DNA of 64,000 bases from Candidatus Multivoradales bacterium (GCA_965223325.1 CBDCWI010000002.1:4064001-4128000), one strand, 5' to 3'. Counted from the stretch's first letter, positions 1 to 50,210 are shown. Made by a program: numbers and translations. The notes: generated from the letters alone by a model not told the origin.

Positions 1-1248
1 CTCGGCAACGACATGCAGCTGACCTCGATCAGTGGCTACGAGTCGGTCGACGCTGATGGTTTCGGTGACATCGACGGCGGCAACCCGACGGGTCCGGGTT
101 TCATTCCGTTTGGCTCTCACACCGGTGGCTTCAACGAAGTCGAACAGCTGACCCAGGAGATCCGTTTGAGTCAGGACCATGGCGAAGGCTTCCGTTGGCA
201 GGCCGGTGCGTTCCTCTTCGACGCCGAGCTCGACAGCATCACCCGAGTCTTCTTTATCGACGACAGTCGAACCGTCGAAGACAGCTCCGCCTGGGCCTTG
301 TTCGGCCAGGGCACCAAGGCGCTCAACGATCGCCTCGACCTGACCATCGGACTGCGCTACACCGAAGACGAGAAAGACCTCACGATCCTCGCTTCGCCGG
401 TTCCCAACGCTCCGGTGAGTGTCTCCGACGAGCAGGTGAGCTGGGACGCCAGCGTGGTCTATCAGGCAACCGACGACACCAATCTCTACGGTCGTGTTTC
501 CTCCGGCTTCCGTGGGCCGTCGATCCAGGGTCGGGACATCGCCTTCTTCGGCTCACCGTCGACGGCGCGTTCCGAGACGATCTTGTCGTACGAAGTGGGC
601 AGCAAGTCCGAGATCGCCAACGGGCGCGTGCGCCTCAACACCGCCCTCTTCTACTACACGGTTGACGACCAGCAGTTCACTGCCATCGGTGGTGACGGCA
701 ACTTCATTCGCCTGGTCAACGCCGCAGAGGGTCAGGGTCAGGGTCTCGAGTTCGACCTCAAGTGGTTGGCAACCAATCGCTTGCAGCTGGGCGTCGGGCT
801 CGGTCTCTCTGACACCGAGATCAACGACCCGAACCTGGCCGTCGCGACCTGCGGCTCAGGCCAGTGCACGGTACTCGATCCGCTCGACGGCAACGGCAAC
901 GCTCTCGTCGACGGCAACCCGTTCCCCAACGCCCCCGAGTACACCTACAACCTGAGCGCCGACTACACGATTCCAATCGGTGATGGTGGCCTGTTGTTGT
1001 CAGCCGACTACGTGGTGATTGGCGATACCAACTTCTTCCTCTACGAGTCGGCCGAGTTCAACATCGACGAGAACCCCGAACTCGGTCTTCGTATCGGTTA
1101 CGCGTGGGCCGGGCAGGAGATCGCGCTCTTCGGTCGCAACGTCACCGACGAGGAGAACCTGATCGGTGGGATCGACTTCAACAACAACACTGGTTTCGTC
1201 AACGAACCGCGGACCTACGGCGTCACGTACAAGCGCTTTGTGTTCTAA
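1..1248 (+). CDS. TonB-dependent outer-membrane receptor (5'-truncated by window edge)
   Basis: Beta-barrel-type sequence (GLRYTEDEK, YEVGSKS, N-x-TDE, PRTYGV) with C-terminal Phe; frame open from window start. Confidence 0.9.
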   Translation, partial: LGNDMQLTSISGYESVDADGFGDIDGGNPTGPGFIPFGSHTGGFNEVEQLTQEIRLSQDHGEGFRWQAGAFLFDAELDSITRVFFIDDSRTVEDSSAWALFGQGTKALNDRLDLTIGLRYTEDEKDLTILASPVPNAPVSVSDEQVSWDASVVYQATDDTNLYGRVSSGFRGPSIQGRDIAFFGSPSTARSETILSYEVGSKSEIANGRVRLNTALFYYTVDDQQFTAIGGDGNFIRLVNAAEGQGQGLEFDLKWLATNRLQLGVGLGLSDTEINDPNLAVATCGSGQCTVLDPLDGNGNALVDGNPFPNAPEYTYNLSADYTIPIGDGGLLLSADYVVIGDTNFFLYESAEFNIDENPELGLRIGYAWAGQEIALFGRNVTDEENLIGGIDFNNNTGFVNEPRTYGVTYKRFVF

Positions 1249-1480
1249 CGAAAGACGTGGTTGACGCCGTTGGGGCGTTTTCCTGGCGTTGGTTGAATGT
1301 GGTCGCTGTTTGGGCGTAGTACCTCCGCTGAGTGGTTACCACGTCTTTCGTTAGACGTCCTCTCCCCCCTTGGCGTCCCCCCAGGGGGGGCGGCGCAAGC
1401 GGTCCGTCGCGCGTGCCGGTTGCGGCAGGGTGCCGCCCTGTAGTGGGCGTCGCTGGCCTTCGTTTCGCCTGTCGCGCGCC
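1244..1480 (+). repeat. Stop-codon-anchored structured element, copy A (single)
   Basis: 18-bp inverted repeat TCTAACGAAAGACGTGGT (1244-1261) / ACCACGTCTTTCGTTAGA (1338-1355), C-run/G-run hairpin, CGGCGCAAGCGGTCCGT at 1391, GTCGCGCGCC at 1471; motifs shared with elements at 5483, 41024, 50210. Confidence 0.85.
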
Positions 1481-1545
1481 GCTGAGAGATGCCAGCCGCC
1501 CGGCTACCATGGCGGGGAGCCTCGACGACCTTTCTACGGAGAATC

Positions 1546-2802
1546 ATGAAGCCCAGCACCGCGACAAGCCCCGACCTTGCGCCCGAAGGCCATGAGCGCT
1601 TGGCCTGGGCGCGGCGCAATATGCCGGTCCTGCGCGGCCTGGAGGAGGAGTTCGCCAGGACCCAGCCGCTGGCCGGTCGCAATGTGGTGGTCAGTGTGCA
1701 CCTGGAGGCCAAGACCGCCTACCTGGCGCTGGTCCTGTGTGCCGGGGGGGCACGGGTGGCGGTGACGGGGAGCAACGCCGGCTCGACCAAGGACTCGGTG
1801 GTTGCGGCGCTGGTGGAACGTGGGCTGCATGTTTATGCGCGGCACGGGGCGTCGCCCGAGGAGATGCATCAGTTCCTCCACGACGCGCTCGATCTCGAAC
1901 CCCAGGTGGTGATCGATGACGGCGGAGACATCGTCGAAGTCCTGCATGACGAGCGAGCGGAGTTGCTGCCTCAGGTGCTCGGTGCCTGTGAAGAGACCAC
2001 CACCGGTGTCTTGCGGGCCCGGGCGCGCAGTCGGGCGGGCAAGCTCGCCTTCCCGGTGCTGCTCATCAACGACGCGCGTTGCAAGCACCTGTTCGACAAC
2101 GTCTACGGGACCGGCGAGTCGGTGTGGGCAGCGGTGATGCGGGCTGGCAACGTGGCAGTCGCCGGGAAGACGGTCGCGATCGCGGGCTTCGGTTGGTGTG
2201 GGCGCGGCTGTGCGCTGCGCGCGAGTGGTCTGGGTGCGCGTGTGATCGTCAGTGAGGTTGACCCGGTGAAGGCGCTCGATGCCACGATGAATGGCTATCA
2301 GGTCCTGCCGTTGGTGGAAGCCTGTCGCCAGGCCGACTTCGTTTTGACGGTCACCGGTCTACGCAACACGTTGCGACGAGAGCACTTCGAGGCCATGAAG
2401 AACGGCGCCTTCATCGCCAACGCCGGTCACTTCCGTTCGGAGGTCGACGTTCCTGCCCTGGAGGACTTGGGCGTAGAGCGCAGCCGGGAGCGTGAAACGA
2501 TCGAAGGCTTCCGAATGAGCGACGATCGGTGGCTCTACCTGCTCGGCAATGGGAACATCGTCAACATTGCCTGTGGTGATGGACATCCCGCCGAGATCAT
2601 GGACCTCTCGTTCTCGTTGCAGGCCCTCACCGCTCGCTACGTTACCGAGCAGGCAGGCACGCTCGCCCGCGACACCCTTCCGGTTCCAGAAGCCATCGAC
2701 CTCGAGGTGGCGCGTCGCAAACTCGAGAGCATGGGGGTTTCGATTGACGATCTCTCGGCCGAGCAGGAGGCCTACCGTGACCACTGGCGCACCGACGTTT
2801 GA
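1546..2802 (+). CDS. ahcY: Adenosylhomocysteinase family (short archaeal/Firmicutes-like type; possibly S-inosylhomocysteine hydrolase)
   Basis: Motifs HLEAKT, DDGGD, EETTTG, KHLFDNVYGTGES, GFGWCG, NAGHF, GHPAEIMDLSF; GGAGA RBS before ATG 1546. Confidence 0.93.
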   Translation: MKPSTATSPDLAPEGHERLAWARRNMPVLRGLEEEFARTQPLAGRNVVVSVHLEAKTAYLALVLCAGGARVAVTGSNAGSTKDSVVAALVERGLHVYARHGASPEEMHQFLHDALDLEPQVVIDDGGDIVEVLHDERAELLPQVLGACEETTTGVLRARARSRAGKLAFPVLLINDARCKHLFDNVYGTGESVWAAVMRAGNVAVAGKTVAIAGFGWCGRGCALRASGLGARVIVSEVDPVKALDATMNGYQVLPLVEACRQADFVLTVTGLRNTLRREHFEAMKNGAFIANAGHFRSEVDVPALEDLGVERSRERETIEGFRMSDDRWLYLLGNGNIVNIACGDGHPAEIMDLSFSLQALTARYVTEQAGTLARDTLPVPEAIDLEVARRKLESMGVSIDDLSAEQEAYRDHWRTDV

Positions 2803-2806
2803 ACCG

Positions 2807-4141
2807 ATGGCTGAAGGAAAGGAAGCACCCGACCTGGTCATCACCGGTGCCCGCGTCGTCACCCGTGACAGCGCGCGGCGCACCATCGATTCGGGCGGCG
2901 TGGCGGTCACCGGAACGCGCATCAGCGCTGTCGGAAGCGACGACGAGTTGTCAACGCTTGCTTTGCGTGCGGCAAGGCATTTCGATGCCTCCGGGCACCT
3001 GTTGTGTCCAGGTCTCGTCAACCTGCACTGTCATACGCCCAACAGTCTCTTCCGCGGATTGGTCGAAGACCTGGCGCTCGAGCCCTGGCTCGACACCTTG
3101 TGGAAGGCCGAGAAGGCGACTCTCACTCCCGAGACCACTCGCCTAGGTGCTCAGCTCGGTCTGGCCGAGAATCTGCTCGCCGGGGTGACCACCGTCATGG
3201 ACATGTTTTGGTTCCCCGAGGAAGGCGCGCAGGCCGCGGTGGACATGGGGGTGCGCGTTTCCACCGGCGGCATGGCCTTCGACGGTGAGGGCATGGATGG
3301 CATCGACGAGGGCGACCGCGAAGACCAGGCACGTGCCTTCGTTGCGCGGTTCGGCGATGAACCACTGGTCGTGCCGTCGCTCAACCCGCACGCCACCTAC
3401 ACGGTCGGGCCAGAGGGTCTCGAGATGTGTGCTCGGCTGCAGGAGGAGTTCGATTGCCTGCTTACGATCCATGCCGCTGAGACGCGTTTCGAGCAGCGCA
3501 CCGCAAAGGAGCGCTTCGGCAAGTCGGTGATCCGAGTACTCGAAGACAGAGGCCTTCTCGGTTCGCGCACGGTGCTTGCACACTGCGTACACCTCGACGA
3601 GGGCGAGATCGGCTTGATTGCCGAGAGTGGAACGGCGGTGGCGCACAATCCGGTCTCGAATCTGAAGATCGGTTCGGGGGTCGCCCCGATTCCCGAACTA
3701 CTCGCGGCGGGAGCGCGCGTCGGCGTCGGTACAGACGGTGCGGTAAGCGGCAACGACCTCGACATCTGGATGGCGCTCCGGCTAGCGGCGATTCTTCACA
3801 AGGGCGCGCATGAGGATCCGCTGGTGGTCACAGTCGACCAGGCGCTCGCCATGGTGACCGACGGGGGCGCGGCTGCTCTCGGGTTGGGAGATGAGATTGG
3901 CTCTCTCGAGGTCGGCAAGTCTGCTGATCTGGCGCTACTCGAGCTGCAGCAGCCCTATGCCGTGCCACTCTTCGACCCGGAAGGGCACCTGGTGTTCTCG
4001 GCCGGCAGGGGAGACGTGCGGCAGGTTTTCGTGCGTGGGCGCCAGGTGGTTGCGGATCGCGAGATCCTGACGCTCGACCTGGCCGATGTTCTCGGGCGCG
4101 TCGACGCTCTGGCTGGCAGCATCGCGGCTTCGGTGCGCTAG
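2807..4141 (+). CDS. Amidohydrolase, MTA/SAH deaminase (MtaD/DadD)-like
   Basis: PGLVNLHCH, HAAET, AHCV, HNPVSNLK, GTDG, GSLEVGKSAD motifs; starts 4 nt after ahcY stop. Confidence 0.8.
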   Translation: MAEGKEAPDLVITGARVVTRDSARRTIDSGGVAVTGTRISAVGSDDELSTLALRAARHFDASGHLLCPGLVNLHCHTPNSLFRGLVEDLALEPWLDTLWKAEKATLTPETTRLGAQLGLAENLLAGVTTVMDMFWFPEEGAQAAVDMGVRVSTGGMAFDGEGMDGIDEGDREDQARAFVARFGDEPLVVPSLNPHATYTVGPEGLEMCARLQEEFDCLLTIHAAETRFEQRTAKERFGKSVIRVLEDRGLLGSRTVLAHCVHLDEGEIGLIAESGTAVAHNPVSNLKIGSGVAPIPELLAAGARVGVGTDGAVSGNDLDIWMALRLAAILHKGAHEDPLVVTVDQALAMVTDGGAAALGLGDEIGSLEVGKSADLALLELQQPYAVPLFDPEGHLVFSAGRGDVRQVFVRGRQVVADREILTLDLADVLGRVDALAGSIAASVR

Positions 4142-4224
4142 CTCCCGGAGACGTCAGCCCGAGACGTCGGCCTGGGACTGTGGAAGACTCGTCAGCTGAG
4201 CGAGAACTCAGAGGAAACCCTCCC

Positions 4225-4995
4225 ATGACCGATCCTTCCGCCAGCATGCCAGGCTCACCGTTCGGAACGACCCGCACTCGGGTGACCGACAGCTACGCCG
4301 TGCTCGCTCCCGACGGTCACGTGCTGGCTCCGCTGGCGTCGTGGCGAAACACGCAAGGGGTGATCCTGATTTCGCCGGCCATGGGGGCCGCCTTCGTGCA
4401 GTACCTGGCCCTGGCCGAGGAAGGCTCATCGACCGACCACGCAGCTCAGGGCATCGAGCGCTTCATCTACGTCGAGGCGGGCGAAGCGCGTTTCGAATCG
4501 CCGGCAGCCAACGCCTCCGTGCTCGCAGCCGGCCACTACATCTTCGTGCCTGCCGACACCGAACACCACCTCGAGGCCACCCAGACGTCGCGCTTGTGGG
4601 TCTTCGAGAAACCGTTCGAGCGCCGCGCCGGCACAGCGCTGCCCGAGGTCGTCGTCGGTGACACCGCTCGAGTCGAGGGCGTACCCTTCATGGGCGATGA
4701 AGATGCAGTTCTCAAGACGCTTCTCCCCGACGAGCCCGAGTTCGATATGGCGGTCAACCTCTTCACCTACCAGTCGGGAGCGACCCTGCCGTTCGTCGAG
4801 ACCCACATCATGGAGCACGGCCTCTTGATGGTCGAGGGCATGGGTGTCTACCGGCTCGGAGACGATTGGCACCCGGTGCAACAGGGTGACGTGATCTGGT
4901 TGGCGCCCTTTTGCCCGCAGTGGTTCGTCGCGATGGGAAAGCAGCCCGCCTCGTACCTCTACTACAAAGACGTGAACAGGGACCCTCTCGCATGA
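4225..4995 (+). CDS. allE: (S)-ureidoglycine aminohydrolase (bicupin)
   Basis: PFVETHIMEHGL and YLYYKDVNRDP motifs; purine-catabolic context. Confidence 0.9.
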   Translation: MTDPSASMPGSPFGTTRTRVTDSYAVLAPDGHVLAPLASWRNTQGVILISPAMGAAFVQYLALAEEGSSTDHAAQGIERFIYVEAGEARFESPAANASVLAAGHYIFVPADTEHHLEATQTSRLWVFEKPFERRAGTALPEVVVGDTARVEGVPFMGDEDAVLKTLLPDEPEFDMAVNLFTYQSGATLPFVETHIMEHGLLMVEGMGVYRLGDDWHPVQQGDVIWLAPFCPQWFVAMGKQPASYLYYKDVNRDPLA

Positions 4996-5486
4996 CCGAG
5001 CCGTTTCCCGAGCGCGACATGGTGCAGCGGTTTCTCAGTCGCGCGATCGACCTCTCACGCGAGAAGATGCGTGCCGGCGAAGGCGGACCCTTCGGTGCAG
5101 TCATTGCGCGCGGCGACGAGGTGATCGCCGAGGGTTGGAACCGCGTGACCTCGTCGTGTGATCCCACCGCCCACGCCGAAGTGGTGGCCATTCGGCACGC
5201 CAGCGAAGGCACCGGAACTTTCGATCTCAGCGGTGCGATCATCTACTCGAGCTGCGAACCCTGCCCGATGTGCCTCGGTGCCATCTATTGGGCGCGGCTC
5301 GACGGCCTGGTCTATGCGAACACACGCCACGAAGCGGCGCGCATTGGCTTTGACGACGAGCACTTCTACGACCAGATGGGCCTGCCGATGGGAATGCAGA
5401 AACTGCCCACCCGTCACCTCACCAGCAATGCCGCACGGGCGGTGTTCGATGAGTGGTTAGAGAAGGCCGATCGCGTGGAGTACTAG
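4992..5486 (+). CDS. guaD: Guanine deaminase, cytidine-deaminase fold
   Basis: GGPFGAVI, DPTAHAE, SCEPCPMC, C-terminal Tyr; ATGA overlap with allE. Confidence 0.82.
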   Translation: MTEPFPERDMVQRFLSRAIDLSREKMRAGEGGPFGAVIARGDEVIAEGWNRVTSSCDPTAHAEVVAIRHASEGTGTFDLSGAIIYSSCEPCPMCLGAIYWARLDGLVYANTRHEAARIGFDDEHFYDQMGLPMGMQKLPTRHLTSNAARAVFDEWLEKADRVEY

Positions 5487-6713
5487 CTTCCCCCGTGGTG
5501 GCACGTAGCGGGAGCCGTTGCCGTTTTGGTGTTTCTGTTGAGGTGGTTGTGGCGCCTTTTTGTTTTTCGGTGGGTCGTTTACCACGGGGGAAGCTAGCGT
5601 CACATCTGCGGCGCAAGCGGTCCGTCTTGCGTTCTTCTTCCTGGGCGCTCGCCCTGTCGTGGCGTCGGTGGTGTTCGTAGATTGGTCGCGCGCCGCGGAT
5701 TCTTGGCTTCGATGGAACAACTGGATCCGATAGGAACCGGGTCGTTGTACGTTGGCTCGTGGTGGCACGTAGCGGGAGCCGTTGCCGTTTTGGTGTTTCT
5801 GTTGAGGTGGTTGTGGCGCCTTTTTGTTTTTCGGCGGGTCGTTTACCACGGGGGAAGCTAGCGTCACATCTGCGGCGCAAGCGGTCCGTCTTGCGTTCTT
5901 CTTCCTGGGCGCTCGCCCTGTCGTGGCGTCGGTGGTGTTCGTAGATTGGTCGCGCGCCGCGGATTCTTGGCTTCGATGGAACAACTGGATCCGATAGGAA
6001 CCGGGTCGTTGTACGTTGGCTCGTGGTGGCACGTAGCGGGAGCCGTTGCCGTTTTGGTGTTTCTGTTGAGGTGGTTGTGGCGCCTTTTGGTTTTTCGGCG
6101 GGTCGTTTACCACGGGGGAAGCTAGCGTCACATCTGCGGCGCAAGCGGTCCGTCTTGCGTTCTTCTTCCTGGGCGCTCGCCCTGTCGTGGCGTCGGTGGT
6201 GTTCGTAGATTGGTCGCGCGCCGCGGATTCTTGGCTTCGATGGAACAACTGGATCCGATAGGAACCGGGTCGTTGTACGTTGGCTCGTGGTGGCACGTAG
6301 CGGGAGCCGTTGCCGTTTTGGTGTTTCTGTTGAGGTGGTTGTGGCGGTTTTTGTTTTTCGGTGGGTCGTTTACCACGGGGGAAGCTAGCGTCACATCTGC
6401 GGCGCAAGCGGTCCGTCGTGCGTTCTTCTTCCTGGGCGCTCGCCCTGTCGTGGCGTCGGTGGTGTTCGTAGATTGGTCGCGCGCCGCGGATTCTTGGCTT
6501 CGATGGAACAACTGGATCCGATAGGAACCGGGTCGTTGTACGTTGGCTCGTGGTGGCACGTAGCGGGAGCCGTTGCCGTTTTAGTGTTTCTGTTGAGGTG
6601 GTTGTGGCGCCTTTTTGTTTTTCGGTGGGTCGTTTACCACGGTGGAAGCTAGCGTCACATCTGCGGCGCAAGCGGTCCGTCGTGCGTTCTTCTTCCTGGG
6701 CGCTCGCCCTGTC
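5483..6713 (+). repeat. Stop-codon-anchored element copy B, tandem array of ~4.6 x 264 bp
   Basis: Units start CGTGGTGGCACG at 5494, 5758, 6022, 6286, 6549; IR CTAGCTTCCCCCGTGGT (5483-5499) / ACCACGGGGGAAGCTAG (5581-5597); family motifs in each unit. Confidence 0.95.
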
Positions 6714-6741
6714 CGCGCGTTGCGACCCTGCCTCCCTTGTC

Positions 6742-9700
6742 TCATTCTTTCTCGCTGCCGCCAAGCACGCGCAGGATCTCTTCGTGGGTTGCCGGTAGCT
6801 GAAGGTTTCGCGAGCACCCTCTCGCCTGGGCCAGTGCGTCTTTGACTGCGGTGAACACGGCGATCGCCAGCATCAGCGGCGGTTCACCAACGGCCTTGGT
6901 GCTGCGCAGGTTCTTGTGGTTGAGGTCATTGTCGATGAAGTCGATGTTCATGACCGGCGGCAGGTCGCTGACGGCGGGGATCTTGTAGGTCGTGGGTGAG
7001 TGGGAGAGGAGCGCACCGCCCGGGTCGTAGACCAGTTCTTCGGCGGTGACCCAGCCGATTCCCTGAACGAGGCCGCCGATGACCTGGCCGCGTTCGATTT
7101 CGAAGTTGATGGGCTTGCCGATATCCATCAGCACGTCCAGTCGCTCGACCTGCAGCGTGCCGAAGTCGCGGTCGATGAGCACCTCTGCGACACAGCCGCC
7201 GGTGGTGAAGTAGTAGAAGGGCGTTCCGCGACCGGTTTCGCGGTTGAAATCCACTCCCGGCGTGGCGTAAAAGCCTCGCGCGCCGAGGTCGACGCGTTCG
7301 GTGTGGGCCTTCTTTATCAGCTCCTGGAAGGTCAACCGACGGGTCGGCGCGCGGCGGTCGAAGACTTCGCCGCAGTCGAAGACCACCGCTTCCGGTGACG
7401 CCACGCGGCCCTGTTTGCGACTAGCGAAGTGATCAGCGGCCAGGGTAGCCAAGCGTCGGCGAATGGTTGCGCAAGCGCGCACTGCGGCGGTGCCGTTCAG
7501 GTCCGTGCTTGCTGAGGCAGCTGTTGGGGAGGTGTTGTTGTTCTTTTCCGTCGACGTCTGGAGCACGACGACTCGCCGTGGGTCGATGGAAAACTCTTCG
7601 GCGACGACCTGGGCGATCTTTGTGTTCACTCCCTGGCCCATCTCAGTGGCCCCGGTCGAAACCTGCACCGTGCCGTCGGTGAACACGTTGACCAAGGCGT
7701 TGGCCTGGTTGAGGGTCTTGTTGGTGAACGAGATTCCGAACTTTACTGGCACCAGGGACAGGCCGCGAAGGTACGTTTCGTTCGACTGGTTGAACTGCCT
7801 GATCTCCTCGCGCCGTGCGTTGTAGTCGGCGTCGCGCGCGAGGCGCGGCATGATCTCGGGCAACAGGTTCGAGACCACGGGTTGCCCGTAGGGGGTCGTG
7901 TTGGATCTCTCATTCCCCGGATCGGGGTCGCGTGCGTAGAGGTTGGCCGTGCGCACCTCGAGCGAGTCAAGATCGAGATGCTGTGCGACTTCTTCCATCA
8001 CCGTTTCGATGACGGCCATACCCTGGGGGCCGCCGAAGCCACGAAATGCTGTGTTGGGCGGCAGGTTGGTGCGGCAGACCTGTGCGGTGATCCTGACCGC
8101 CGGTAGGTAGTAGGCGTTGTCTAGATGAAGCATCAGGCGCTCGAGCACCGCGGTCGACAGGTCGGCGAATGCGCCGCCATTGGTGCGTACCTCGAAGTCC
8201 GCCGCGAGAATGTGACCGTCGCCGTCGAAACCGATGCGATAACCCACCAGGGCTTCGTGGCGTTTGCCGGTCAGTTTCATGTCGTCGTCTTTGCTGTAGA
8301 CGACGCGAGCAGGCCGGCCGGTTTGCCTGGCGACCAGCGCTGCCATCAGTGCCGGGATCGCAGCTTGGGTTTCTTTACCGCCGAAAGCGCCGCCCATGCG
8401 CTTCACCTCGCAGATCACCTGGTGCATTCCGAGATCCAGGACCTCTGCGGCGACCGCCTGGATCTCGGTTGGGTTCTGGGTCGACGAGATGATGGTGAGT
8501 TCGTCGTTCTCGCGCGGAATGGCGAGGGCAGCCTGGCTCTCGAGGTAGAACTGCTCCTGACCTCCGGTGCGCAGGCTGCCTTCAAGCTCATGCGATGCCG
8601 CTTTGAAAGCCTTCGCCAGGCCGCCGCGGGCGATGACGCGTTGGGGACCCAGGAACTCGCCTCGTTCCTCGGCCTCTTCGATTCGAAGAGTCGGCTCGAG
8701 CTTCTGAGCCTCGATGACCACCAGCTTCTGTGCCGCTTTCAGTGCGTGGCGCGAGGTTGCTGCGAGAACCACCAGAGGCTGACCCAGGTAGTGGAACTCT
8801 CTCTTGGGGAGAAACGGCTCGTCGTGGAAAATCGGCCCAAAGGGACGATGGTGCGGTAGGTCGGCTGCGGTGAAGACTCCCTCGACACCCGGCACATTGC
8901 GCGCCGCCCTTGTGTCGATGCGTTCGATCGTGCCGCGCGCATGCGGGGCGCCGACAAAGCCGACCACCAGCTCGCCCTCACGGTGAGGCAGGTCTTCGAC
9001 GTATGGAGCGCTGCCCGTCACGTGGCCGCTCGCAGAGTCGTGATGAAGCGAGTTTGGATCCGGTGGGGCAGCTGCCGTGACCGCCTCGAGAGCGAGCCCA
9101 CACTCTCGTTCATCTGGAGGCGTTCGCTTCCAGCCGGCGTCGACGTCTCGCCACGTGCGCAGAAGGACGTTGGCGGCCAACTGCAGGCGGTACTCGGCCC
9201 GGCCGCGCACGTCGGTGATGGGGGTGATCTCACCTTGCGCTATCTGACCGGCTCTTGCGAACAGCTCTTCACTTACAGTCTCGCCGGCGAGTAGGGCCTC
9301 GGTCTCTGGAAGCCGCATCACGACGGGTCCGACACCGCCCATCACGACTTTGGGATCGCTGATCACACCCGCATCGTCAGCGAAGAAGCGGATGGCAGCG
9401 GTAAAGATCGAAATGTCGAGATCCAAGCGGCGTGAAACCTTGAACAACCGAAACACTTCGTCCGAACGTGGGATCTCGAATCGGATGCGCGCCAGCAGTT
9501 CGCCGCGCTCGAGGAGCGTTTCCTTGTAGCCGGTGTAGAAACCGTCGATCGGTAGCCAGCGCGCCCCTTTCGCACTCACCAGCTCGAGCTGTGCGTCGCA
9601 GGCGATCAGACACGGAATCGCATCGCCGATCGGAGAGGCGTTCATCAAGTTGCCACCGATGGTTCCCAAGTGGCGGATCTGGGGGGCGCCAAAGACGTCG

Positions 9701-39487: not shown

Positions 39488-41023
39488 TTGCAACTAGAAG
39501 GATCTCTCAACGAAATCGCGGTCGCACCGCTACTCGAGCGGGTCGGTGCCCTGGGCAAAACCGGCATCCTCACGATTCACAGTGAAAGCGACATCATCGC
39601 GGTCACCTTCCTGGATGGGCGAATCGTGGCAGCCGATGCGCTCAACGAACCGATCGACGAAGGTCTCGGCCAGGTTCTGATCAGCCAGGGCCTGCTTACC
39701 GAAGAGCGCTTCACGGGCATGCTCGAGGACGCTCGCGGGGCGAGTCGCCGCCTGTCGCATCACCTGGTGGAGCGGGCAGTGGTGGGTCGCGACCAGGTCC
39801 TCGAGGCGGTGCGCCTGCAGACGTATCGCCTGTTGCTTCGCCTGCTGCGCTGGAACGAAGGCGAGTGGAACATCTTTGTCGGCGACGAGATCTCCTACGA
39901 GGACGGCATCCGCCCGATTGCGGTGGAAGAGGTGCTCGTTCGGGCGCAGGGGGACCTGGGTGACGAATCACCCGTTGATGGCGTCCTGCCGGAACTCGAA
40001 ACCACCTGGGAGCGTAGCCCCGACACCCGCACCATCAAGATCCTCGGTATCGACGGAGATACTCCGAGTGGCGATGAGACCGAGGTGTGGGTCACGGCGG
40101 CTCAGCACGCCCTGTTGCGCGAGAGCGAAGGCGGCTGCTTCGGCACCTCGCTGCTCACCCGTGCTGGGCTCGATGAGTACGAGGTGCGTTGGGGTCTCTC
40201 GCAGCTGCGCAACCTCGGCATGGTCAACGAACGCCAGCAAACGGAGCTCGAGGTCGGCGAGCACACTCTCGGTGGAGGGGGTCTCGGCAGTCTCGACGAC
40301 CAGGTTCGCGATCCGCTGCGCGAAACCGGCAGCCACTCGTTCCTCGGCGACACCGACGCTTCGCTGGGAGAGCTGCTCTCCGGGGCCCCGGTCGAAGCCG
40401 AAGCTGATTTCCTTCGCGACACTGGCTCATTCGGCGGGCTGGTGCCGCCGCCACCCACCGGCCAGCGACCAGTTTCAGCCGGCCAGACCGGTGTCCACGA
40501 GAAGGTCACGCCGCCTCCCAAGTCCGCGGCTCCTAGCCGTCACAAGGCGCGGTCGATTCTGCGGGACTTCGTCGATGTCTGGTTGGGGCGCACCATGGCG
40601 CTCGGCTTCTTCCTGGTCGTCGTGCTGGCCTTTGCGCTCATGCCGGACCGCAACGGGTTGTTCTTCCCCTACCCTTGGCAGGAACGTCAACGTGAGGCAT
40701 TCGAGAGCGCCCAGCGTGCTTCTCAGGCCGCCAAGCTCGATCGCGCGGTGCGTTCCTACTACCTGCTCTATGGGCGCTTCCCCGAACGTCTCGGAGCCCT
40801 CTCGGCTCTCGAGCTCTTGAGTCCCAACGATCAGGTCGACAGCCGGGGTCGGCAGCTGCAGTACTCCTCAGCCAAGACTAGCTACACCCTGCAGCCGCTT
40901 CGCGATGGCCAGCCGGTGCCGGGTCTCGAACGCACCTACGACGTGGCGGAAGACTTCCTGCTCAGCCCGGAGTTCGTGCGGGTGCAGAGAAACGAGCGCA
41001 GCCCGGTGGTTCTTCTGGATTGA
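39488..41023 (+). CDS. DUF4388-domain membrane protein
   Basis: LEGSLNEI...KTGILTI N-terminus, WNEGEW, C-terminal TM followed by GRFPERL...DSRGRQLQY (pseudopilin-like) segment. Confidence 0.72.
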   Translation: MQLEGSLNEIAVAPLLERVGALGKTGILTIHSESDIIAVTFLDGRIVAADALNEPIDEGLGQVLISQGLLTEERFTGMLEDARGASRRLSHHLVERAVVGRDQVLEAVRLQTYRLLLRLLRWNEGEWNIFVGDEISYEDGIRPIAVEEVLVRAQGDLGDESPVDGVLPELETTWERSPDTRTIKILGIDGDTPSGDETEVWVTAAQHALLRESEGGCFGTSLLTRAGLDEYEVRWGLSQLRNLGMVNERQQTELEVGEHTLGGGGLGSLDDQVRDPLRETGSHSFLGDTDASLGELLSGAPVEAEADFLRDTGSFGGLVPPPPTGQRPVSAGQTGVHEKVTPPPKSAAPSRHKARSILRDFVDVWLGRTMALGFFLVVVLAFALMPDRNGLFFPYPWQERQREAFESAQRASQAAKLDRAVRSYYLLYGRFPERLGALSALELLSPNDQVDSRGRQLQYSSAKTSYTLQPLRDGQPVPGLERTYDVAEDFLLSPEFVRVQRNERSPVVLLD

Positions 41024-42110
41024 TTGAGGCGGGCGTGGTTGGTCGCGGTTGTAGCGCGGGCCGGCGTTTCTTTCTTTGTTGGTGGATGGGGTGGCCGGTT
41101 GACGGTGCGAGGTGGTTACCACGCCCGCCTCAACCGGTCTTCTCCCCCCTTGGGATTGAGGCGGGCGTGGTTGGTCGCGGTTGTGGCGCGGGCCGGCGTT
41201 TCTTTCTTTGTTGGTGGATGGGGTGGCCGGTTGGCTTTGTGAGGTGGTTACCACGCCCGCCTCAATCGGTCTTCTCCCCCCTTGGGATTGAGGCGGGCGT
41301 GGTTGGTCGCGGTTGTAGCGCGGGCCGGCGTTTCTTTCTTTGTTGGTGGATGGGGTGGCCGGTTGACGGTGCGAGGTTGGTTACCACGCCCGCCTCAACC
41401 GGTCTTCTCCCCCCCTTGGTATCCCCCCAGGGGGACGGCGCAAGCGGTCCGTGGCGCTGGCCTTCTTTGTGGGGCCCTGGTTCCCTGCACTTGCGGCGTC
41501 GGCCTTCGTTTCGCTTGTCGCGCGCCTTTGCCGGACTTCGGGACTGAAGCGCGAGGTGCCTTCCGCGCTGGTTAGCGCGGGCCGGCGTTTCTTTCTTTGT
41601 TGGTGGATGGGGTGGCCGGTTGGCTTTGTGAGGTGGTTACCACGCCCGCCTCAATCGGTCTTCTCCCCCCTTGGCATCCCCCCAGGGGGACGGCGCAAGC
41701 GGTCCGTGGCGCTGGCCTTCTTTGTGGGGCCTGGTTCCCTGCACTTGCGGCGTCGGCCTTCGTTTCGCTTGTCGCGCGCCTTGCCGGACTTCGGGACTGA
41801 AGCGGCGGTGGTTTCGTGGCGGTTTGTAGCGCGGGCCGGCGTTTCTTTCTTTGTTGGTGGATGGGGTGGCCGGTTGGCTTTGTGAGGTGGTTACCACGCC
41901 CGCCTCAACCGGTCTTCTCCCCCCTTGGTATCCCCCCAGGGGGACGGCGCAAGCGGTCCGTGGCGCTGGCCTTCTTTGTGGGGCCTGGTTCCCTGCACTT
42001 GCGGCGTCGGCCTTCGTTTCGCTTGTCGCGCGCCTTTGCCGGACTTCGGGACTGAAGCGCGAGGTGCCTTCCGCGCTGGTTAGCGCGGGCCGGCGTTTCT
42101 TTCTTTGTTG
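41024..42110 (+). repeat. Stop-codon-anchored element copy C: 3 x 132 bp followed by ~3 x 254-257 bp
   Basis: TTGAGGCGGGCGTGGT at 41024, 41156, 41288 with partner ACCACGCCCGCCTCAA; TAGCGCGGGCCGGCG recurs at 41316, 41573, 41827, 42081; family motifs present. Confidence 0.93.
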
Positions 42111-42194: not shown

Positions 42195-42220
42195 AAATCT
42201 TAGTCTCTTTCTGTCATATA
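42195..42220 (+). promoter_or_regulatory. Possible degenerate HAIR (HspR) operator upstream of dnaK
   Basis: AT-rich island TCTTAGT-N7-TGTCATA, weak match to CTTGAGT-N7-ACTCAAG; hspR is in the same operon. Confidence 0.3.
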
Positions 42221-44340: not shown

Positions 44341-44355
44341 TAGCCTTCGCCTCCC

Positions 44356-44760: not shown

Positions 44761-44814
44761 GAGGCGACCGAACGGCTCGGCCGCCTCACCAGGGAACAAA
44801 CCGAGAGAAGCACC

Positions 44815-45192
44815 ATGGCGCGCGCCAAGCGATACGTGATGATCAGCGTCGTCGCTGAACGGTACGGTATCCATCCGCAGACGCTCCGTTTGTACGAGCG
44901 CGAAGGTCTGATCGAGCCCCATCGCAGCGAGGGCAACACACGTCTCTACGATGAAGAGTCGATCGCGCGCCTCGAGGCGATTCTCGCCCTGACGCGCGAT
45001 ATGGGCGTCAACCTCGCAGGCGTGGAGGTCATCCTCCGTCTCAAGGCGCATTTGCAGGAGCTCGAAGAAGAGAATCTTCGTCTCCGTCGGGCGCTCGAGA
45101 TGGAGCGTCGCGATCGCCGGAGTGGCGTCGAGCGGCAACGGGCACTGGTCAAGTTCGAGAGCGCGGCCCTCCTGCGTCTCGAGGACGAGTAG
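44815..45192 (+). CDS. hspR: MerR-family heat-shock repressor
   Basis: ISVVAE..IHPQTLRLYEREGL..PHRSEGNTRLY, GVNLAGV. Confidence 0.88.
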   Translation: MARAKRYVMISVVAERYGIHPQTLRLYEREGLIEPHRSEGNTRLYDEESIARLEAILALTRDMGVNLAGVEVILRLKAHLQELEEENLRLRRALEMERRDRRSGVERQRALVKFESAALLRLEDE

Positions 45193-45372
45193 GGACGAGT
45201 AGGTCGGAGAGCGCGCAGCGCACCGGGTGTCTGCCTTGGGCTGCTAGGCTTACGGTTCGCCCGCCGCACCGTCCTCCTCCTGAGGTACGGTCCCTCCGGT
45301 GTTCTGGTGACACTCCGTGCGGCACCGCATGGCGGTGTGACCCCCGCCCCTCCAGTTTACAAAGTGAGGCCG

Positions 45373-46161
45373 ATGTCAGCCCCTCTCGATTTCCCGGTTC
45401 CGCCCGCTTGCTCGGTGTGCTCTGGGCGACGCTGGATTGTTGAAGAGGGGCGTGCTCGTCGCTGCGAATGCGCCCAAAGCATTCCAGGGTCGAACCTGAT
45501 CGAGAGGGCGGGGTTGCCTCCGCGCTATCGCGATTGCCGGCTGGAGACGTTCAAACCCGAAGTCGCCAGCGGTTCTGCCCGTGAGCAGCTGGCGCGCGCG
45601 CGCAGCATCTGCCGGCAGTACATCGATGAGTTTCTCGAAGCCGATGGGCTCTTTCGCGAGACCGGGCTGATCTTCATTGGCCCCCCGGGGGTCGGTAAGA
45701 CGCATCTGGCGGCGGCGGTTCTGCGAGAGTTGATCGAGCAGTACCGAGTCGATGGGCGGTTCGTCGACTTCACCAGCTTGTTGCACGAGATCCAGGCGAC
45801 CTTCGACTCGTCGTCGCCGATCACCAAGAACGCAGTGCTCCGCCCGGTCACCAATGCAGAAGTCCTGGTACTCGATGAGCTCGGAGCACAGAAGCCGACC
45901 CCCTGGGTCTCCGAGATGCTCTACCTGATCATGAACGCGCGCTACTCTCGGCGCCTACCGACCCTCTTCACCACCAACTTTCGGCTCGACCCGGAGGCCG
46001 AGGAGCAGGGCCTGGACCGCGGCGCCGATCAAACCGCGTCGCTCCATCGACGCATTCCGGCACCGCTTCTCAGTCGTCTCTACGAAATGGCTCGTCCCGT
46101 CGTGCTTGACGGTGCGCCCGATTTTCGGCGCCAGATTCAGGTCCACCAGCACGGCATCTGA
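45373..46161 (+). CDS. DnaC/DnaI/IstB-like AAA+ ATPase
   Basis: CxxC...CxC N-terminus, Walker A GPPGVGKT, Walker B VLVLDELG, FTTN, SRLYEM. Confidence 0.85.
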   Translation: MSAPLDFPVPPACSVCSGRRWIVEEGRARRCECAQSIPGSNLIERAGLPPRYRDCRLETFKPEVASGSAREQLARARSICRQYIDEFLEADGLFRETGLIFIGPPGVGKTHLAAAVLRELIEQYRVDGRFVDFTSLLHEIQATFDSSSPITKNAVLRPVTNAEVLVLDELGAQKPTPWVSEMLYLIMNARYSRRLPTLFTTNFRLDPEAEEQGLDRGADQTASLHRRIPAPLLSRLYEMARPVVLDGAPDFRRQIQVHQHGI

Positions 46162-46186
46162 TCGCCGCTATCGATCTCGAGAAGAC

Positions 46187-48421
46187 GTGAAGCTGAGCAG
46201 CTCGAGAGGGAGGCCCCTGGCATCCCAGTGCAGGCAGGGAGACTCCGGCCACCGTCCGCTGGCGTGGGTGGTCGCAGCGCTCGTTCTTGCTGTGTTGTCG
46301 TGTAGTGCACCGCAGCCGGTCTCGTCGCCTCCGCCCCTACTCGACCTTTCCGAAGAGTGGATGGTGCCGGGTGACGTGGTGCCCACGTCGCCACCTGCAG
46401 CAACTCCTTCCGCCACCGCCGACAGGCCCGCCAGAGCGCCCGCGCCAGCGCCGGAAGTATGGCTCCCGGTGCGTGTGCGTGTGGGCCTCGACACCGACCA
46501 TCCGAGCTACGCTCTGCCATGCTGTCAAGACGAGTACCTGATCTACATCGAGGGCGAAAGAACCGGTTTCCGCATCCGCGCCGGCTCGCCGCAGGTCGTG
46601 ATTCGACCGGCCGCCCGTAGTGTGACCACTGGAGTGTTCAGACTGCAGGCCGCTGCCCTCAAAGACGAACGGCAGGCGGTCGGTCTCGCGCGTCGCCTGG
46701 GTGGTTTGCTCGACCAACCAGCCGACGCCGTGTTCGATGCCGGAACAGACCTCTATCGGGTGCGCGTCGGCGCCTACCGCGATCGCGCTGAAGCAGAGCG
46801 CGCAGCACGCCAACTCGAAGCTGCCGGGGTGAGTGGCGCTTGGATCGCTCAGGAGGGCGGTACGCTCGAGGGCGCGGGCTTCACGCTCGAGCAGGGTGGT
46901 AAGTCGCGTCGCGTTGACGGGCGCAGCCTGGTCGTGTCGTCTCCGTCGGGAGTTGTGGCGTTCGAGAAGCGCACCTTTCGTGGTGCCCTCGGGCTGTTTC
47001 TCAACGGTCGTGGGTCGTTGAACATCGTCAATCACGTGTCGCTCGACGACTACCTGCGCGGCGTCTTGCCGATGGAAATGGGTCCGGCGCTGTTTCCCGA
47101 GCCAGAGGCGCTCGCAGCCCAGACGATCGCCGCTAGAACCTACGTCGTTCGCCACATGGGCGAGTTCCAGGCCGAGGGCTACGACATCTGCGCGACCCCC
47201 CGTTGCCAGGTCTACGGTGGCATGGGTGCCGAACATCCGATGTCTGACCGTGCGGTCGCAACAACCAGTGGCCAGATCCTGGTCGCCGACGGCGGAGCCG
47301 CCAACGCGATGTACAGCGCCACCTGTGGTGGCCACACCGAAGACGTGAGCGCCGTCTTCCCGCAGCAGGACGAGTGGTACCTCGAGGGCATCGCGTGCTG
47401 GGAGCGCGGCGTAGACGAGGTGCGGGGCTACCGAACCAACGGGGCCTTCGAGCGTGAACTGCTCGACCGCTTGCTCGGGCCGGTGCGCCGGAAGTCGAGC
47501 CTCGACGCGCGTCTCGAGCAAGTTGCGGCCCGGATCGACGTTCCTTCACCACCACCCATGCCGGTTTCGCGTGCACGCAGCGAGATCGCTCTTGCCATCA
47601 GACAGAACTTCGACCTGCGTCTCGAGCCCGGGCTCTTGCAGGGTGCGCACAACGAGGAGCTGAGTCCCGCTGGAAGAGCGCTCACCAGGTTCTTCGGGCG
47701 TCGTGGGAGAAACCTGACCGCGCCAGAAGAAGACGAGCTGGTCCTTCTCCTCATGCGCGAGTTCGGACTGCTGCGCAGGGTGCGTGGCGGCTTTCTGACC
47801 CGTTCAGGCGATCGGCTGAGAGTTCGTGTCGAACGGTCACGCCTCGACCTCGTCGTTGGGCCCGATCTTCTGCTGGCACCTGAGAGGGGTGTTCAAAGAG
47901 CCGGTCAAGGGACGCTCTCGTTGCGTCCTGGTGATCCCCTCGAGATCTACTACGACGCATCAGGCGCGCGCGCCATCATTCCTCGCTTTGCGCTTGCTCA
48001 TCGGGCAGGGCCCAGGATTCCGGGGCCGTGGCGGAAGTTCAGGTCGGATCGGGAGCTGGCCCGCCTGGTGGAGGCGCGCTACCCAGGTTTTCAGATGATC
48101 GATCTGGAGGTCCTTCGTACGGGTCGCTCAGGGCGAGTTGCTGAAGTCCTGCTGCGTGACGCCACCGGTCGCGAGTTGACGATCGAAGGTCTCGCCATCC
48201 GCTGGACGTTCGACCTACCCGACGTGCGCTTCACCGTGTCTCGAGAGACCAGCGGACGTCGAGGTTGGCTGTTCAGGGGCCAAGGGCACGGCCATGGTGT
48301 CGGTCTCTGCCAGCGCGGCGCGGTAGGTATGGCGGCGCGGGGTCACGACCGAGCGACGATTCTCGAGCACTACTATGGCGGCCTACGCCCGATGCAGGTG
48401 ACGCAGGCGACTGGCGGCTAG
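46187..48421 (+). CDS. SpoIID/LytB lytic transglycosylase lipoprotein with SPOR domain
   Basis: Lipobox VLSC, SPOR (LYRVRVGAY), YLRGVLPMEM, AQTIAARTY, CQVYGG, GHGHGVGLCQRGA. Confidence 0.88.
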   Translation: MKLSSSRGRPLASQCRQGDSGHRPLAWVVAALVLAVLSCSAPQPVSSPPPLLDLSEEWMVPGDVVPTSPPAATPSATADRPARAPAPAPEVWLPVRVRVGLDTDHPSYALPCCQDEYLIYIEGERTGFRIRAGSPQVVIRPAARSVTTGVFRLQAAALKDERQAVGLARRLGGLLDQPADAVFDAGTDLYRVRVGAYRDRAEAERAARQLEAAGVSGAWIAQEGGTLEGAGFTLEQGGKSRRVDGRSLVVSSPSGVVAFEKRTFRGALGLFLNGRGSLNIVNHVSLDDYLRGVLPMEMGPALFPEPEALAAQTIAARTYVVRHMGEFQAEGYDICATPRCQVYGGMGAEHPMSDRAVATTSGQILVADGGAANAMYSATCGGHTEDVSAVFPQQDEWYLEGIACWERGVDEVRGYRTNGAFERELLDRLLGPVRRKSSLDARLEQVAARIDVPSPPPMPVSRARSEIALAIRQNFDLRLEPGLLQGAHNEELSPAGRALTRFFGRRGRNLTAPEEDELVLLLMREFGLLRRVRGGFLTRSGDRLRVRVERSRLDLVVGPDLLLAPERGVQRAGQGTLSLRPGDPLEIYYDASGARAIIPRFALAHRAGPRIPGPWRKFRSDRELARLVEARYPGFQMIDLEVLRTGRSGRVAEVLLRDATGRELTIEGLAIRWTFDLPDVRFTVSRETSGRRGWLFRGQGHGHGVGLCQRGAVGMAARGHDRATILEHYYGGLRPMQVTQATGG

Positions 48422-48429
48422 GAGCGCAC

Positions 48430-48771
48430 CTACGAAGGTAGGACTTGGTCATTCGGCTCGCTTCCCTGCCCGACGAACTGCTGAACCGATATCCCAACGC
48501 GGCGCTCGAAGCGTTGGCAGTAGCTTTCGACATCGCCGACCTGCTCGTCGAGAAAGACGCGTTCGACCCGCGAAATCGGAACGAACATCGTCGCCAGGCC
48601 GAGCGAGGGCTTCTCGCCGCTAGCGGCCTCGGCCATCCAGTCGTCGAAGGTCGACACGTTGAGGCCCATGAGCACGAGACCGACGGCGTCGAGGCGCTGC
48701 AAAACTCCCCAGAACTTCTCGGAGGGTTGCGCCAGGTGAGTGATGACGATGGAACCTGGTTCCATCATCAC
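48430..48771 (-). CDS. Hypothetical protein (possible Sm-like small beta-barrel)
   Basis: Coupled to mce; EKFWGVL...MFVPISRVERVFLDE. Confidence 0.65.
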   Translation of the reverse strand: MMMEPGSIVITHLAQPSEKFWGVLQRLDAVGLVLMGLNVSTFDDWMAEAASGEKPSLGLATMFVPISRVERVFLDEQVGDVESYCQRFERRVGISVQQFVGQGSEPNDQVLPS

Positions 48772-49178
48772 GCAGTACCCTTCCGCGGTTCCGACAGCTC
48801 GACCAGCACCCCACCAGCGCTCTTTGGATGGATGAACTGAACCAGAGCGCCCTCGGCGCCAACCGACGGCGTATCGCGAATCAGACGGAAGCCATCGCCA
48901 CGAAGCTTTGCGTCCTCCCCGTGCACGTCGTCCGTCGCCATACAGATGTGATGAATCCCGGGCCCGCCGCGCTCGAGAAAGCGCGCAATCGCGGACTCGT
49001 CTGAAGTCGGTTCGATGAGTTCGATGCGCGTGTTGCCGCAGGGGATCATTGCCACCCGGACGTGCTCTCGAGGTACCTCTTCGATGTGTTCGATCGACAA
49101 ACCGAGGGCCTCGTAGAAGCCGCGCGACTCCTGGATGGAAGAAACCGCAATACCAATGTGGTCAAGACCTTCGATCAT
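48768..49178 (-). CDS. mce: Methylmalonyl-CoA epimerase
   Basis: LDHIGIAV, IELIEP, GPGIHHIC, FIHPKSAGGVLVEL. Confidence 0.9.
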   Translation of the reverse strand: MIEGLDHIGIAVSSIQESRGFYEALGLSIEHIEEVPREHVRVAMIPCGNTRIELIEPTSDESAIARFLERGGPGIHHICMATDDVHGEDAKLRGDGFRLIRDTPSVGAEGALVQFIHPKSAGGVLVELSEPRKGTA

Positions 49179-49277
49179 GGCCGGGGCCCTCGTGGAGATG
49201 AATCAGAGATGAAAGTGCTGCCGGAGAGATGAAGCAGAGTACACGGTGACCAGCGTCCGTCCGAACTCGGTGGAAGA

Positions 49278-50210
49278 AGTCGGCAAACGCCACGGAGCGC
49301 TTGCGCCGACGCCCCGCTTTGTGCAGGCCAGGGGAGAGGCATCGTTGGGAGGGGGTGTGGTTTGGAGGAGTAGCAACCGCGAGGTCGCCGCCAACCTCGG
49401 GACGGTCCACCAGGCGTGAACACCAAGACTGCACCCAGCGACGCGCAGTCCGTGGGGTTAGCGCGTCCGGAGAGGCGCGCGACGATCCCTCGTCTACGAC
49501 GATCGCTGCTGCAGGGGTACGGCTTCTGCAGTCGGCAAACGCCACGGAGCGCTTGCGCCGACGCCCCGCTTTGTGCAGGCCAGGGGAGAGGCATCGTTGG
49601 GCGGGGGTGTGGTTTGGAGGAGTAGCAACCGCGAGGTCGCCGCCAACCTCGGGACGGTCCACCAGGCGTGAACACCAAGACTGCACCCAGCGACGCGCAG
49701 TCCGTGGGGTTAGCGCGTCCGGAGAGGCGCGCGACGGTCCCTCGTCTACGACGATCGCTGCTGCAGGGGTATGGCTTCCGCAGTCGGCAAACGCCACGGA
49801 GCGCTTGCGCCGACGCCCCGCTTTGTGCAGGCCAGGGGAGAGGCATCGTTGGGAGGGGGTGTGGTTTGGAGGAGTAGCAACCGCGAGGTCGCCGCCAACC
49901 TCGGGACGGTCCACCAGGCGTGAACACCAAGACTGCACCCAGCGACGCGCAGTCCGTGGGGTTAGCGCGTCCGGAGAGGCGCGCGACGGTCCCTCGCCCA
50001 CGACGATCGCTGCTGCAGGGGTATGGCTTCCGCAGTCGGCAAACGCCACGGACCGCTTGCGCCGACGCCCCCCTTGGGGGACCCGGGGGGAGAAAGACGT
50101 TGATTCTGGGTGTGGTAACGACGTCTTCCATGCACGAGGTCGCCCCCGCAACCAAATCACTCCACAATCAACGGCACTCCCATCATCGACAAGACCACAC
50201 CCAGAATCAA
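49278..50210 (-). repeat. Stop-codon-anchored element copy D with 3 x 252 bp tandem array
   Basis: IR arms at 50194-50210 and 50100-50116 (TTGATTCTGGGTGTGGT); AGTCGGCAAAC recurs at 49278, 49530, 49782, 50034; family motifs on the minus strand. Confidence 0.93.

Follow-up and report, generated by a model that had tools for sequence, protein, structure and literature searches.

A lineage-specific family of structured palindromic repeats at the 3′ ends of genes in a Candidatus Multivoradales bacterium

A 64,000-nt stretch of the genome of Candidatus Multivoradales bacterium (GCA_965223325.1 CBDCWI010000002.1:4064001-4128000; referred to here as the window) contains four loci of a family of structured, non-coding repeats located at the ends of genes. 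The genome (G000) consists of two contigs (C1 and C2) of 6.69 Mb with 64% G+C; positions in the window are given without a contig prefix, and all others as C1: or C2:. An initial annotation had proposed that four intergenic loci in the window share one architecture. Our analysis shows that these belong to a family found throughout the genome. At every locus a first unit caps a gene at its 3′ end and leaves the protein unchanged. Both of the long stems of the element keep Watson–Crick pairing, and the units amplify locally into near-identical tandem arrays. The family can be placed only within a generic kind, that of an interspersed structured palindromic repeat of a single lineage (68 module loci and 42 perfect hairpins).

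One unit is about 235-245 nt in length (~240 nt), non-coding and without a gene of its own. It begins with a left arm comprising 1-5 nt of the last codons of the host gene, the stop codon, ~7 variable nucleotides and the sequence CGTGGT. A G/T-rich domain of ~78 nt lies between this and the right arm, which is the exact reverse complement of the left. There follows a linker, GTCAC..TTGC in most copies, for which a C-run/G-run hairpin is an optional alternative, and finally a module of ~115 nt closed by a second covarying stem P1. This stem is formed by long-range pairing of GCGGCGC(AA)GCG (motif 5) with CGC-GCGCCGC (motif 6). The spacing of these motifs given in the initial annotation was reproduced (80 nt in locus A), and the motifs prove to be the two halves of P1. 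The main stem has 17 or 18 bp in 37 of the 42 perfect hairpins, and closes a loop of 73-83 nt, or of 60 nt in some copies. Only the copy in the gyrB-gyrA spacer has a loop of 3 nt; here a 16-bp stem is formed over ATC TGA, followed by a C-run hairpin and a second unit. On the sense strand the loops are rich in G and T (fraction 0.55-0.85). They had been described as unrelated in sequence, with structure and spacing rather than sequence under selection; the first description does not hold, and the second is not supported. Consensus motifs are common to loops across the family, from which a profile hidden Markov model (HMM) recovers them, and they are therefore diverged homologues; the inner arm CGTGGTT/TACCACG and the ~115-nt module are also conserved in sequence.

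How large is the family? Profile HMMs (nhmmer) made from 24 family copies, which replaced an earlier alignment of modules under loose criteria, gave 174 module matches and 123 hairpin-domain matches in the whole genome. The modules group into 68 loci, comprising 27 single units and 41 arrays of 2-7, and there are 42 perfect hairpins of at least 15 bp, oriented by the G/T-rich loop, with a single arm mismatch in ~10 further first units. Some 40 to 70 genes of the genome are capped in this way, with genes called by our own open reading frame (ORF) heuristics. Similarity between copies at different loci begins at the first base of the arm (0 to -6) and extends to about +235 to +246. The most similar copies from different loci are 82-84% identical, compared with 93-100% between units of one array. 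Arrays run head-to-tail, and in roughly two thirds of them the period is not divisible by three; their copy numbers depend on a single assembly. In internal array units the left arm is often gone, or its mismatches are left uncorrected.

Some loci have unusual arrangements. Near C2:3545285-3545700 there is a pair of family units. At C1:819930-824173 two convergent genes are each followed by an array; the two arrays face each other, are 82% identical and have a copy of a group II intron (discussed below) between them. On the minus strand at C2:3706310-3706414 a module without a hairpin follows the stop codon directly, joined by a single ACTAGT palindrome, as if the hairpin had been lost precisely, from one copy of the palindromic outer box to the other.

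The element is anchored on the stop codon of the upstream gene. Distances to stop codons, which the initial annotation had suggested should be tabulated, show this anchoring genome-wide. An upstream open frame of at least 80 codons with its stop at -5 to +5 from the arm start is found for 36 of the 42 perfect hairpins, using TAG in 27 cases, TGA in 7 and TAA in 2. Four of the other six are internal units of arrays, and the remaining two (C2:1097100 and C2:3795818) have short upstream frames. Recounting on the basis of the HMM gave 39 first units among 61 full-length hairpin matches; the remaining 22 are either these two exceptions or units internal to arrays. Most commonly the order is 1-2 nt of the final sense codon, TAG, 7 nt and CGTGGT. 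The host genes are themselves unusual when compared with a background of 3,199 coding-like ORFs. TAG ends 27 of the 36, against 39% of the background (p = 2e-5), and the last residue is aromatic (F, W or Y) in 17 of the 36, against 6.0% (p = 4e-12). Many of the host tails resemble the C-terminal signature of β-barrel outer-membrane proteins.

Which parts of the arm come from the host, and which from the element? Seven host genes (those of window loci B, C and D, together with C2:1790755, C2:85525, C2:3622710 and C2:3088908) were compared with orthologues in up to five element-free relatives. The orthologues end at the identical residue for six of the seven genes; at C2:85525 relative G012 ends identically, while G001 has one extra residue. 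Beyond the orthologue stop the sequence is unrelated in all seven. At the TGA-type loci the native TGA is retained. Thus at C2:1790755 our genome reads AAG GAC TGA AGT CGTGGT, and a genome of the same genus reads AAA GAC TGA followed by unrelated sequence; the arm AGGACTGAAGT takes in native codons, with which the internal right arm of the element pairs. At three TAG-type loci, by contrast with the TAG of the element, the orthologue stop is TGA in 11 of 13 cases. The segment TAG+CGAGGGG is common to four loci behind unrelated genes, where the outer 2-3 nt differ and the arms are matched in each. At the level of sequence comparison, the shared segment and the TGA stops of the orthologues show that TAG and 7 nt of the arm travel with the element lineage, apparently landing on the host stop, and that the outermost pairs match the last codon of the host itself. 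These outermost pairs would then have been fitted to the host codon either afterwards or at insertion.

Two other readings of this arrangement were rejected. Insertion into the loop of a native terminator is discounted because conserved element sequence flanks the right arm on both sides, and readthrough coding because the loop lengths show no preference for multiples of three. In a genome of the same genus, the search for an empty site orthologous to locus A led to a match that is probably a paralogue in another context. Contigs of four sequencing runs, all from this organism and at low depth, showed no empty site.

Chance is excluded as the source of the hairpins. The genome contains 65 perfect inverted repeats of at least 15 bp with comparable spacers, of which 43 have the GTGGT-type inner end of the family, while two shuffles of the smaller contig of 2.1 Mb gave 0 and 1. 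The proposal of one family with covarying stems and near-constant spacing is upheld by an alignment of 24 sequences, in which 97.4% of the 622 cells of the two long stems form standard pairs. In 96 cells both sides have changed. Column shuffles gave 26 such cells, none of the 500 reaching the observed count, and sliding the partner by 1-3 columns gave 18-25. Stem P1 covaries as GGCGC/GCGCC, GGGGC/GCCCC, CGCGC/GCGCG and CGCTC/GAGCG. Over the 26 covarying pairs just 5 of the 622 cells are G-U, some of these arising from misaligned window copies. The antisense strand has a folding z-score of -5.1, against -2.6 for the sense strand, and RNAalifold found no conserved structure within the loop. Covariation that is confined to Watson–Crick pairs on a G/T-rich strand, with G-U near-absent in both long stems, favours a constraint that would act on DNA hairpins or on the transcripts of both strands.

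The four window loci are summarized in Table 1. Their coordinates and arms, and the loops of 76, 81, 78 and 77 nt, were all reproduced as initially annotated, and the arms of each pair are exact reverse complements. Loci A, C and D contain the C-run/G-run hairpin, which is missing from B alone as had been stated. The loci had been presented as if each were a single copy, which is true of A; B, C and D are tandem arrays that were overlooked. A stop triplet had been placed in the outer end of every arm, and this is the case for A (TAA) and B (TAG). At C and D the in-frame stop is instead a TGA that precedes the arm, which begins on the very next base, and not the TGA within TTGA. In locus B the loop and right arm persist in the internal units, but the left arm is gone. 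Contigs of three other runs (with separate study codes, at low depth) match locus A and parts of B without differences.

Table 1. Positions of the repeat units and their components in the window.
Feature	Position	Strand	Description
Locus A left arm	1244-1261	+	18 nt; holds TAA stop (1246-1248) and the final two bases of the Phe codon of the upstream TonB-receptor-like ORF
Locus A G/T-rich loop domain	1262-1337	+	76 nt
Locus A right arm	1338-1355	+	Perfect reverse complement of 1244-1261, 18 bp
Locus A C-run/G-run hairpin	1360-1390	+	Optional linker, in place of the GTCAC..TTGC linker of most copies
Locus A conserved module	1389-1493	+	Motif 5 at 1391-1407 and motif 6 at 1471-1480, together closing stem P1
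Locus B first hairpin	5483-5597	+	Arms 5483-5499/5581-5597, 17 bp, loop 81 nt; TAG stop 5484-5486 within arm
Locus B tandem array	5598-6727	+	Five units, period 264/263 nt
Locus B modules	5598-5714, 5862-5978, 6126-6242, 6389-6505, 6653-6727	+	Last module truncated
Locus C hairpin-only units	41024-41433	+	3 tandem × 132 nt; arms begin at 41024, 41154 and 41288
Locus C first hairpin arms	41024-41039/41118-41133	+	16 bp, loop 78 nt; directly after native TGA 41021-41023
Locus C module-bearing units	41434-42110	+	3 × ~254 nt; modules 41434-41543, 41689-41796, 41943-42051
Locus D first hairpin	50100-50210	-	Arms 50210-50194/50116-50100, 17 bp, loop 77 nt; directly after native TGA 50213-50211
Locus D array	49278-50099	-	At least 3 module-bearing units of 252 nt and a degenerate further copy
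Locus D modules	50064-49976, 49812-49724, 49560-49472	-	

Long spurious ORFs run across the arrays at 5457-6764 (-), 41020-41547 (+) and 49301-50293 (+), owing to the scarcity of T or A on one strand. Gene callers may take such ORFs (that at 5457-6764 on the minus strand, for example) for repeat proteins, and the family explains them. Elsewhere in the window an ORF of 293 aa at 62514-63395 (+) is built almost throughout from 24 copies of a 13-residue Lys/Arg/Ala/Thr repeat (39-nt period), and looks like a histone-H1-like or AlgP-like basic protein.

The modules have been colonized by a group II intron of 1,910 nt, which matches RF02005 (180 bits) and encodes a reverse transcriptase (RT)/maturase that matches TIGR04416 (342 bits, cut-off 300). 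There are 14 full-length copies, such as that at C2:698828-700737 (L031); 12 are identical and the other two 99.95% identical, pointing to a very recent burst. Thirteen are inserted at one bond of the module, GGCG^CAAGCGG, on the strand opposite to that of the repeat and the upstream gene, and adjoin a module match that starts at HMM position 18. The fourteenth lies in coding-like DNA beside CAAGCGCTC. Judged by where its copies lie, the intron uses the module as a homing site on the opposite strand. The units that flank it vary from locus to locus, and thus the intron invaded pre-existing units. The inferred 5′ end of the intron is GAUAC, against the usual GUGYG. Among 60 relatives the closest RT is 59% identical, and the flanks of distant intron relatives in five genomes gave no alignable boundaries. 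Class C group II introns reportedly insert after terminators or attC sites, in work ascribed to Robart and colleagues in 2007. The module resembles such hairpin targets in being a repeated, structured DNA target that has taken 13 insertions at one bond, opposite to the neighbouring gene. It differs in being neither terminator nor attC, and in having the insertion point inside a stem. The antisense orientation is paralleled by IIC-attC introns, which are reported in PMC3001079 to be inserted opposite to the adjacent gene. The family and its intron form a clear natural case in which a multi-copy repeat is a safe harbour for a group II intron.

How widely is the family distributed? A covariance model, of the kind proposed in the initial annotation, finds no copy in 60 relatives (one match of 23.6 bits was taken as chance) or in 150 genomes of the phylum, though the module model would miss copies that have only the C-run subtype. 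Searching 40 relatives with locus A by blastn also returned no match. Scanning public contigs for an exact motif gave 30 single matches in genomes and 3 in metagenomes, all of them in coding-like, GC-rich sequence without the hairpin. The window has no match in Rfam at the gathering threshold, and six units searched at E up to 5 gave just two chance matches (19.6 and 14.8 bits). In non-exhaustive full-text literature searches we found no paper describing such a family.

A number of mobile-element genes are present in the genome. An integron-type integrase (TIGR02249, 422 bits, cut-off 265) is encoded beside a tRNA-SeC gene at C2:3807124-3808215 (L040:18124-19215). After the tRNA gene there are four tandem repeats (L040:17468-18046), each with the tRNA 3′ end, three spaced at 134 nt and the last at 100 nt; no canonical cassette array was seen near the integrase. 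Weak Y1_Tnp (PF01797) ORFs of ~320-350 aa cluster near contig ends at C1:2126128-2143849 and C2:4455510-4486968.

The initial annotation had not recognized the repeat as REP/BIME, attC, CRISPR, retron or a known riboswitch, and this judgement is sustained. We file it only under the generic kind because each testable feature of attC, REP/BIME, MITE, terminator, retron and CRISPR failed. Among the closest known systems are the REP/BIME elements of proteobacteria, which are associated with RAYT (a Y1 HUH protein). These are likewise short non-coding palindromes at gene 3′ ends, often near stop codons, that occur in arrays and form hairpins at the DNA level. The REP head tetranucleotide is GTAG, and several arms here begin with GTAG. 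The unit of ~240 nt is much larger than a REP of 20-40 nt, however, with a perfect stem of 17-18 bp around a ~78-nt domain and the stop codon inside the stem; the arrays are head-to-tail where those of BIMEs alternate, and no RAYT is flanked by units. Like attC sites, the hairpin is of ~115 nt (112-118 nt), with a stem of box, spacer and box, a variable centre, and overlap with the stop of the upstream ORF. Structure is conserved more than sequence, there is an antisense group II intron, and the genome has an integrase gene. The attC consensus has AAC/GTT core triplets in the outer boxes. Here AAC/GTT is found in only 2 of the 42 perfect hairpins (window locus A and C2:603561), most having TAGCG/CGCTA. 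Unlike attC the stems are perfect (or have one mismatch in other first units), with neither extrahelical bases nor an unpaired central spacer, and the units lie behind syntenic core genes without a cassette array, and have an additional module and tandem arrays.

The remaining candidates fit less well. In contrast to a MITE the paired arms do not lie at the two ends of the unit but at its 5′ end and midway along it, and the outer 11-12 nt vary between copies. No direct target duplication was seen at the unit ends, and a TA duplication cannot explain the seven TGA-type arms. The main stem is unlike that of an intrinsic terminator, as it closes a long loop and is followed by GTCAC or a C-run without a T-run. 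A retron was rejected because the sole RT is that of the intron, inserted within units, and CRISPR because the array units are whole copies of ~250 nt, not repeat and spacer. A protein-coding repeat was likewise dismissed, loop lengths and array periods having no preference for multiples of three. Lineage-specific intergenic repeats at gene ends include terminator-like MITEs such as the pneumococcal SPRITE and the Correia elements of Neisseria; the mycobacterial MIRU forms tandem units that overlap neighbouring stop and start codons. Our family is like these in being lineage-specific, intergenic and at gene ends, and like MIRU in being tandem. It differs in lacking a conserved terminal inverted repeat with target duplication, its arms differing between copies yet pairing perfectly, in a period that is mostly not a multiple of three, and in having no U-tract after the main stem.

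What, then, is the element? Our best explanation, which we hold tentatively and at somewhat less than an even chance, is a lineage-specific, non-autonomous palindromic repeat, REP/BIME-like and akin also to structured MITE families, selfish or semi-domesticated, that forms hairpins at the DNA level and caps gene 3′ ends. The constraint would act on a DNA hairpin or cruciform, arising from single-stranded DNA (ssDNA) exposed in replication or transcription, or on the transcripts of both strands. The element would spread to new genes through a trans-acting activity that places its own stop over that of the host, after which the internal arm would be matched to the host codon, and unequal exchange or slippage may give rise to the arrays. 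A ribosome terminating on the mRNA would have to melt the stem, and the element probably modulates termination or 3′-end stability, mainly for outer-membrane-protein genes. A number of observations weigh against this explanation. The genome has no transposase, recombinase or RT gene linked to the units, the sole RT belonging to the intron inside them. The association with genes for HUH/Y1 or IS110 enzymes that had been suggested was not found: one of the 28 Y1_Tnp matches adjoins an array, which is the chance level (and the array is not on both sides of it), and none of the four IS110 (DEDD) matches is adjacent to a unit. The integron integrase is 11.4 kb from the nearest unit, with ORFs of 284-934 aa between. 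The units are indeed non-coding and without a gene of their own, as expected of the non-autonomous mobile element initially proposed, but neither a recent inter-locus copy nor an empty/filled polymorphism was seen, and mobility is thus something that we infer. Internal array units with two arm mismatches stay uncorrected, which argues against automatic templated repair, and we know of no DNA-level mechanism that finds stop codons. A small alternative hairpin in motif 5 has G-U pairs on the sense strand in several copies. Lastly, the 15-fold enrichment of aromatic C-termini and the exact overlap with the stop fit a selected RNA function better than a selfish repeat.

Such a function might be that of a cis-acting structured RNA in the 3′ untranslated region, possibly a domesticated repeat, in which the helix holding the stop is opened by each terminating ribosome. 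This would tune termination, ribosome rescue or 3′-end stability, chiefly in mRNA of outer-membrane proteins, and we consider it possible if rather unlikely. In the TAG+7 layout the inner helix CGUGGU/ACCACG begins 11 nt after the first base of the stop, approximately at the mRNA entry of the ribosome. A stop lies in or beside the arm in 36 of 36 first units, the spacing of TAG, 7 nt and CGTGGT is constant in most copies, and first units retain perfect arms that internal array units have lost. The stop overlap, the loss of arms from internal units and the bias to outer-membrane proteins, with its enriched aromatic C-termini, point to a role at the mRNA 3′ end. Of the 14 sites of small terminator-like hairpins found in array B, 13 are on the sense strand, where 5.8 were expected; such hairpins occur inside this array only. 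REPs of E. coli within ~15 nt of a stop are said to stall ribosomes and lower expression, a result credited to Liang, Rudd and Deutscher in 2015. A G/T-rich sense strand favours G-U folding, yet it is just such pairs that are nearly absent from the covarying stems (5 of 622 cells). The antisense strand is the one that folds better, RNAalifold discerns no conserved structure in the loop, the downstream context is mixed (roughly 18 tandem, 21 convergent and 37 unclear), and the arrays and module would have no obvious role. A DNA-level repeat and a role at the mRNA 3′ end are not mutually exclusive.

The precision of the anchoring invites more specific proposals. The family may be a new kind of stop-codon-homing element that lays its own TAG exactly over the host stop, keeps the protein intact and completes a 17-18 bp helix by writing the complement of the last codon of the host inside itself, although we think this unlikely. 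Such homing might proceed via folded ssDNA or on an RNA template, in a reaction tied to the termination of translation. One example would be joining to mRNA ends that arise in the ribosomal A site, followed by copying by the resident RT. A related proposal makes the right arm a guide, with which an ssDNA or RNA element picks its target by pairing an internal 11-12 nt with DNA immediately upstream of the insertion, in the manner of group II introns (exon- and intron-binding sequences, EBS/IBS), IS200/IS605 guides and IS110 bridge RNAs; the hairpin would then be guide plus target. The variable part of the right arm, between conserved sequences, does complement the left flank, native coding bases included; the length of the pairing varies little, and the genome has a putatively active group II intron in addition to its Y1_Tnp and IS110-type genes. 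The TAG+N7 common to sister copies behind unrelated genes means, however, that this part of the supposed target moves with the element. A guide of 10 nt would find about a dozen sites per genome, few of them at stops, neither an intron nor any other Rfam model matches the unit, and no linked enzyme was found, all of which makes a guide very unlikely. We regard as highly improbable a role of the hairpins as attC-like folded-ssDNA recombination sites for the integron integrase of this genome, bona fide as that enzyme is. The 112-118 nt site, with its outer box, spacer of 5-7 nt, inner box and variable centre, the stop in the outer box, the conservation of structure above sequence and the orientation of the intron, as reported for IIC-attC introns in PMC3001079, would agree with such a role. 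Set against these are the perfect stems without extrahelical bases and an outer box that is mostly CTAG(C/T)G, with AAC/GTT at two loci only. Rather than cassettes the hosts are large core genes, including gyrB, whose synteny is conserved; no units cluster beside intI, and the intron sits in the module and not in the hairpin; a scan for canonical attC gave 0 sites, and is too crude to prove absence. Finally, chance similarity or an assembly artefact is barely conceivable. The general risk of mis-assembly in repeats applies, and array copy numbers could be wrong, but 43 family hairpins stand against 0-1 per 2.1-Mb shuffle, contigs of the three other runs reproduce A and parts of B, and the covariation controls hold.

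Whatever its origin, the family places a stop codon in a perfect stem of fixed length at dozens of unrelated genes, with an internal segment adapted to the last codon of the host. As far as we have checked, no described bacterial repeat family does so. Should the element home to stop codons, it would amount to a portable ‘stop-codon cap’ with a preference for the genes of outer-membrane proteins. A mechanistic placement would point to a way in which the ends of genes are recognized, in DNA or in RNA. Were the placement selected, the family would constitute a portable post-transcriptional module for outer-membrane-protein genes, in a phylum whose gene regulation has barely been studied.

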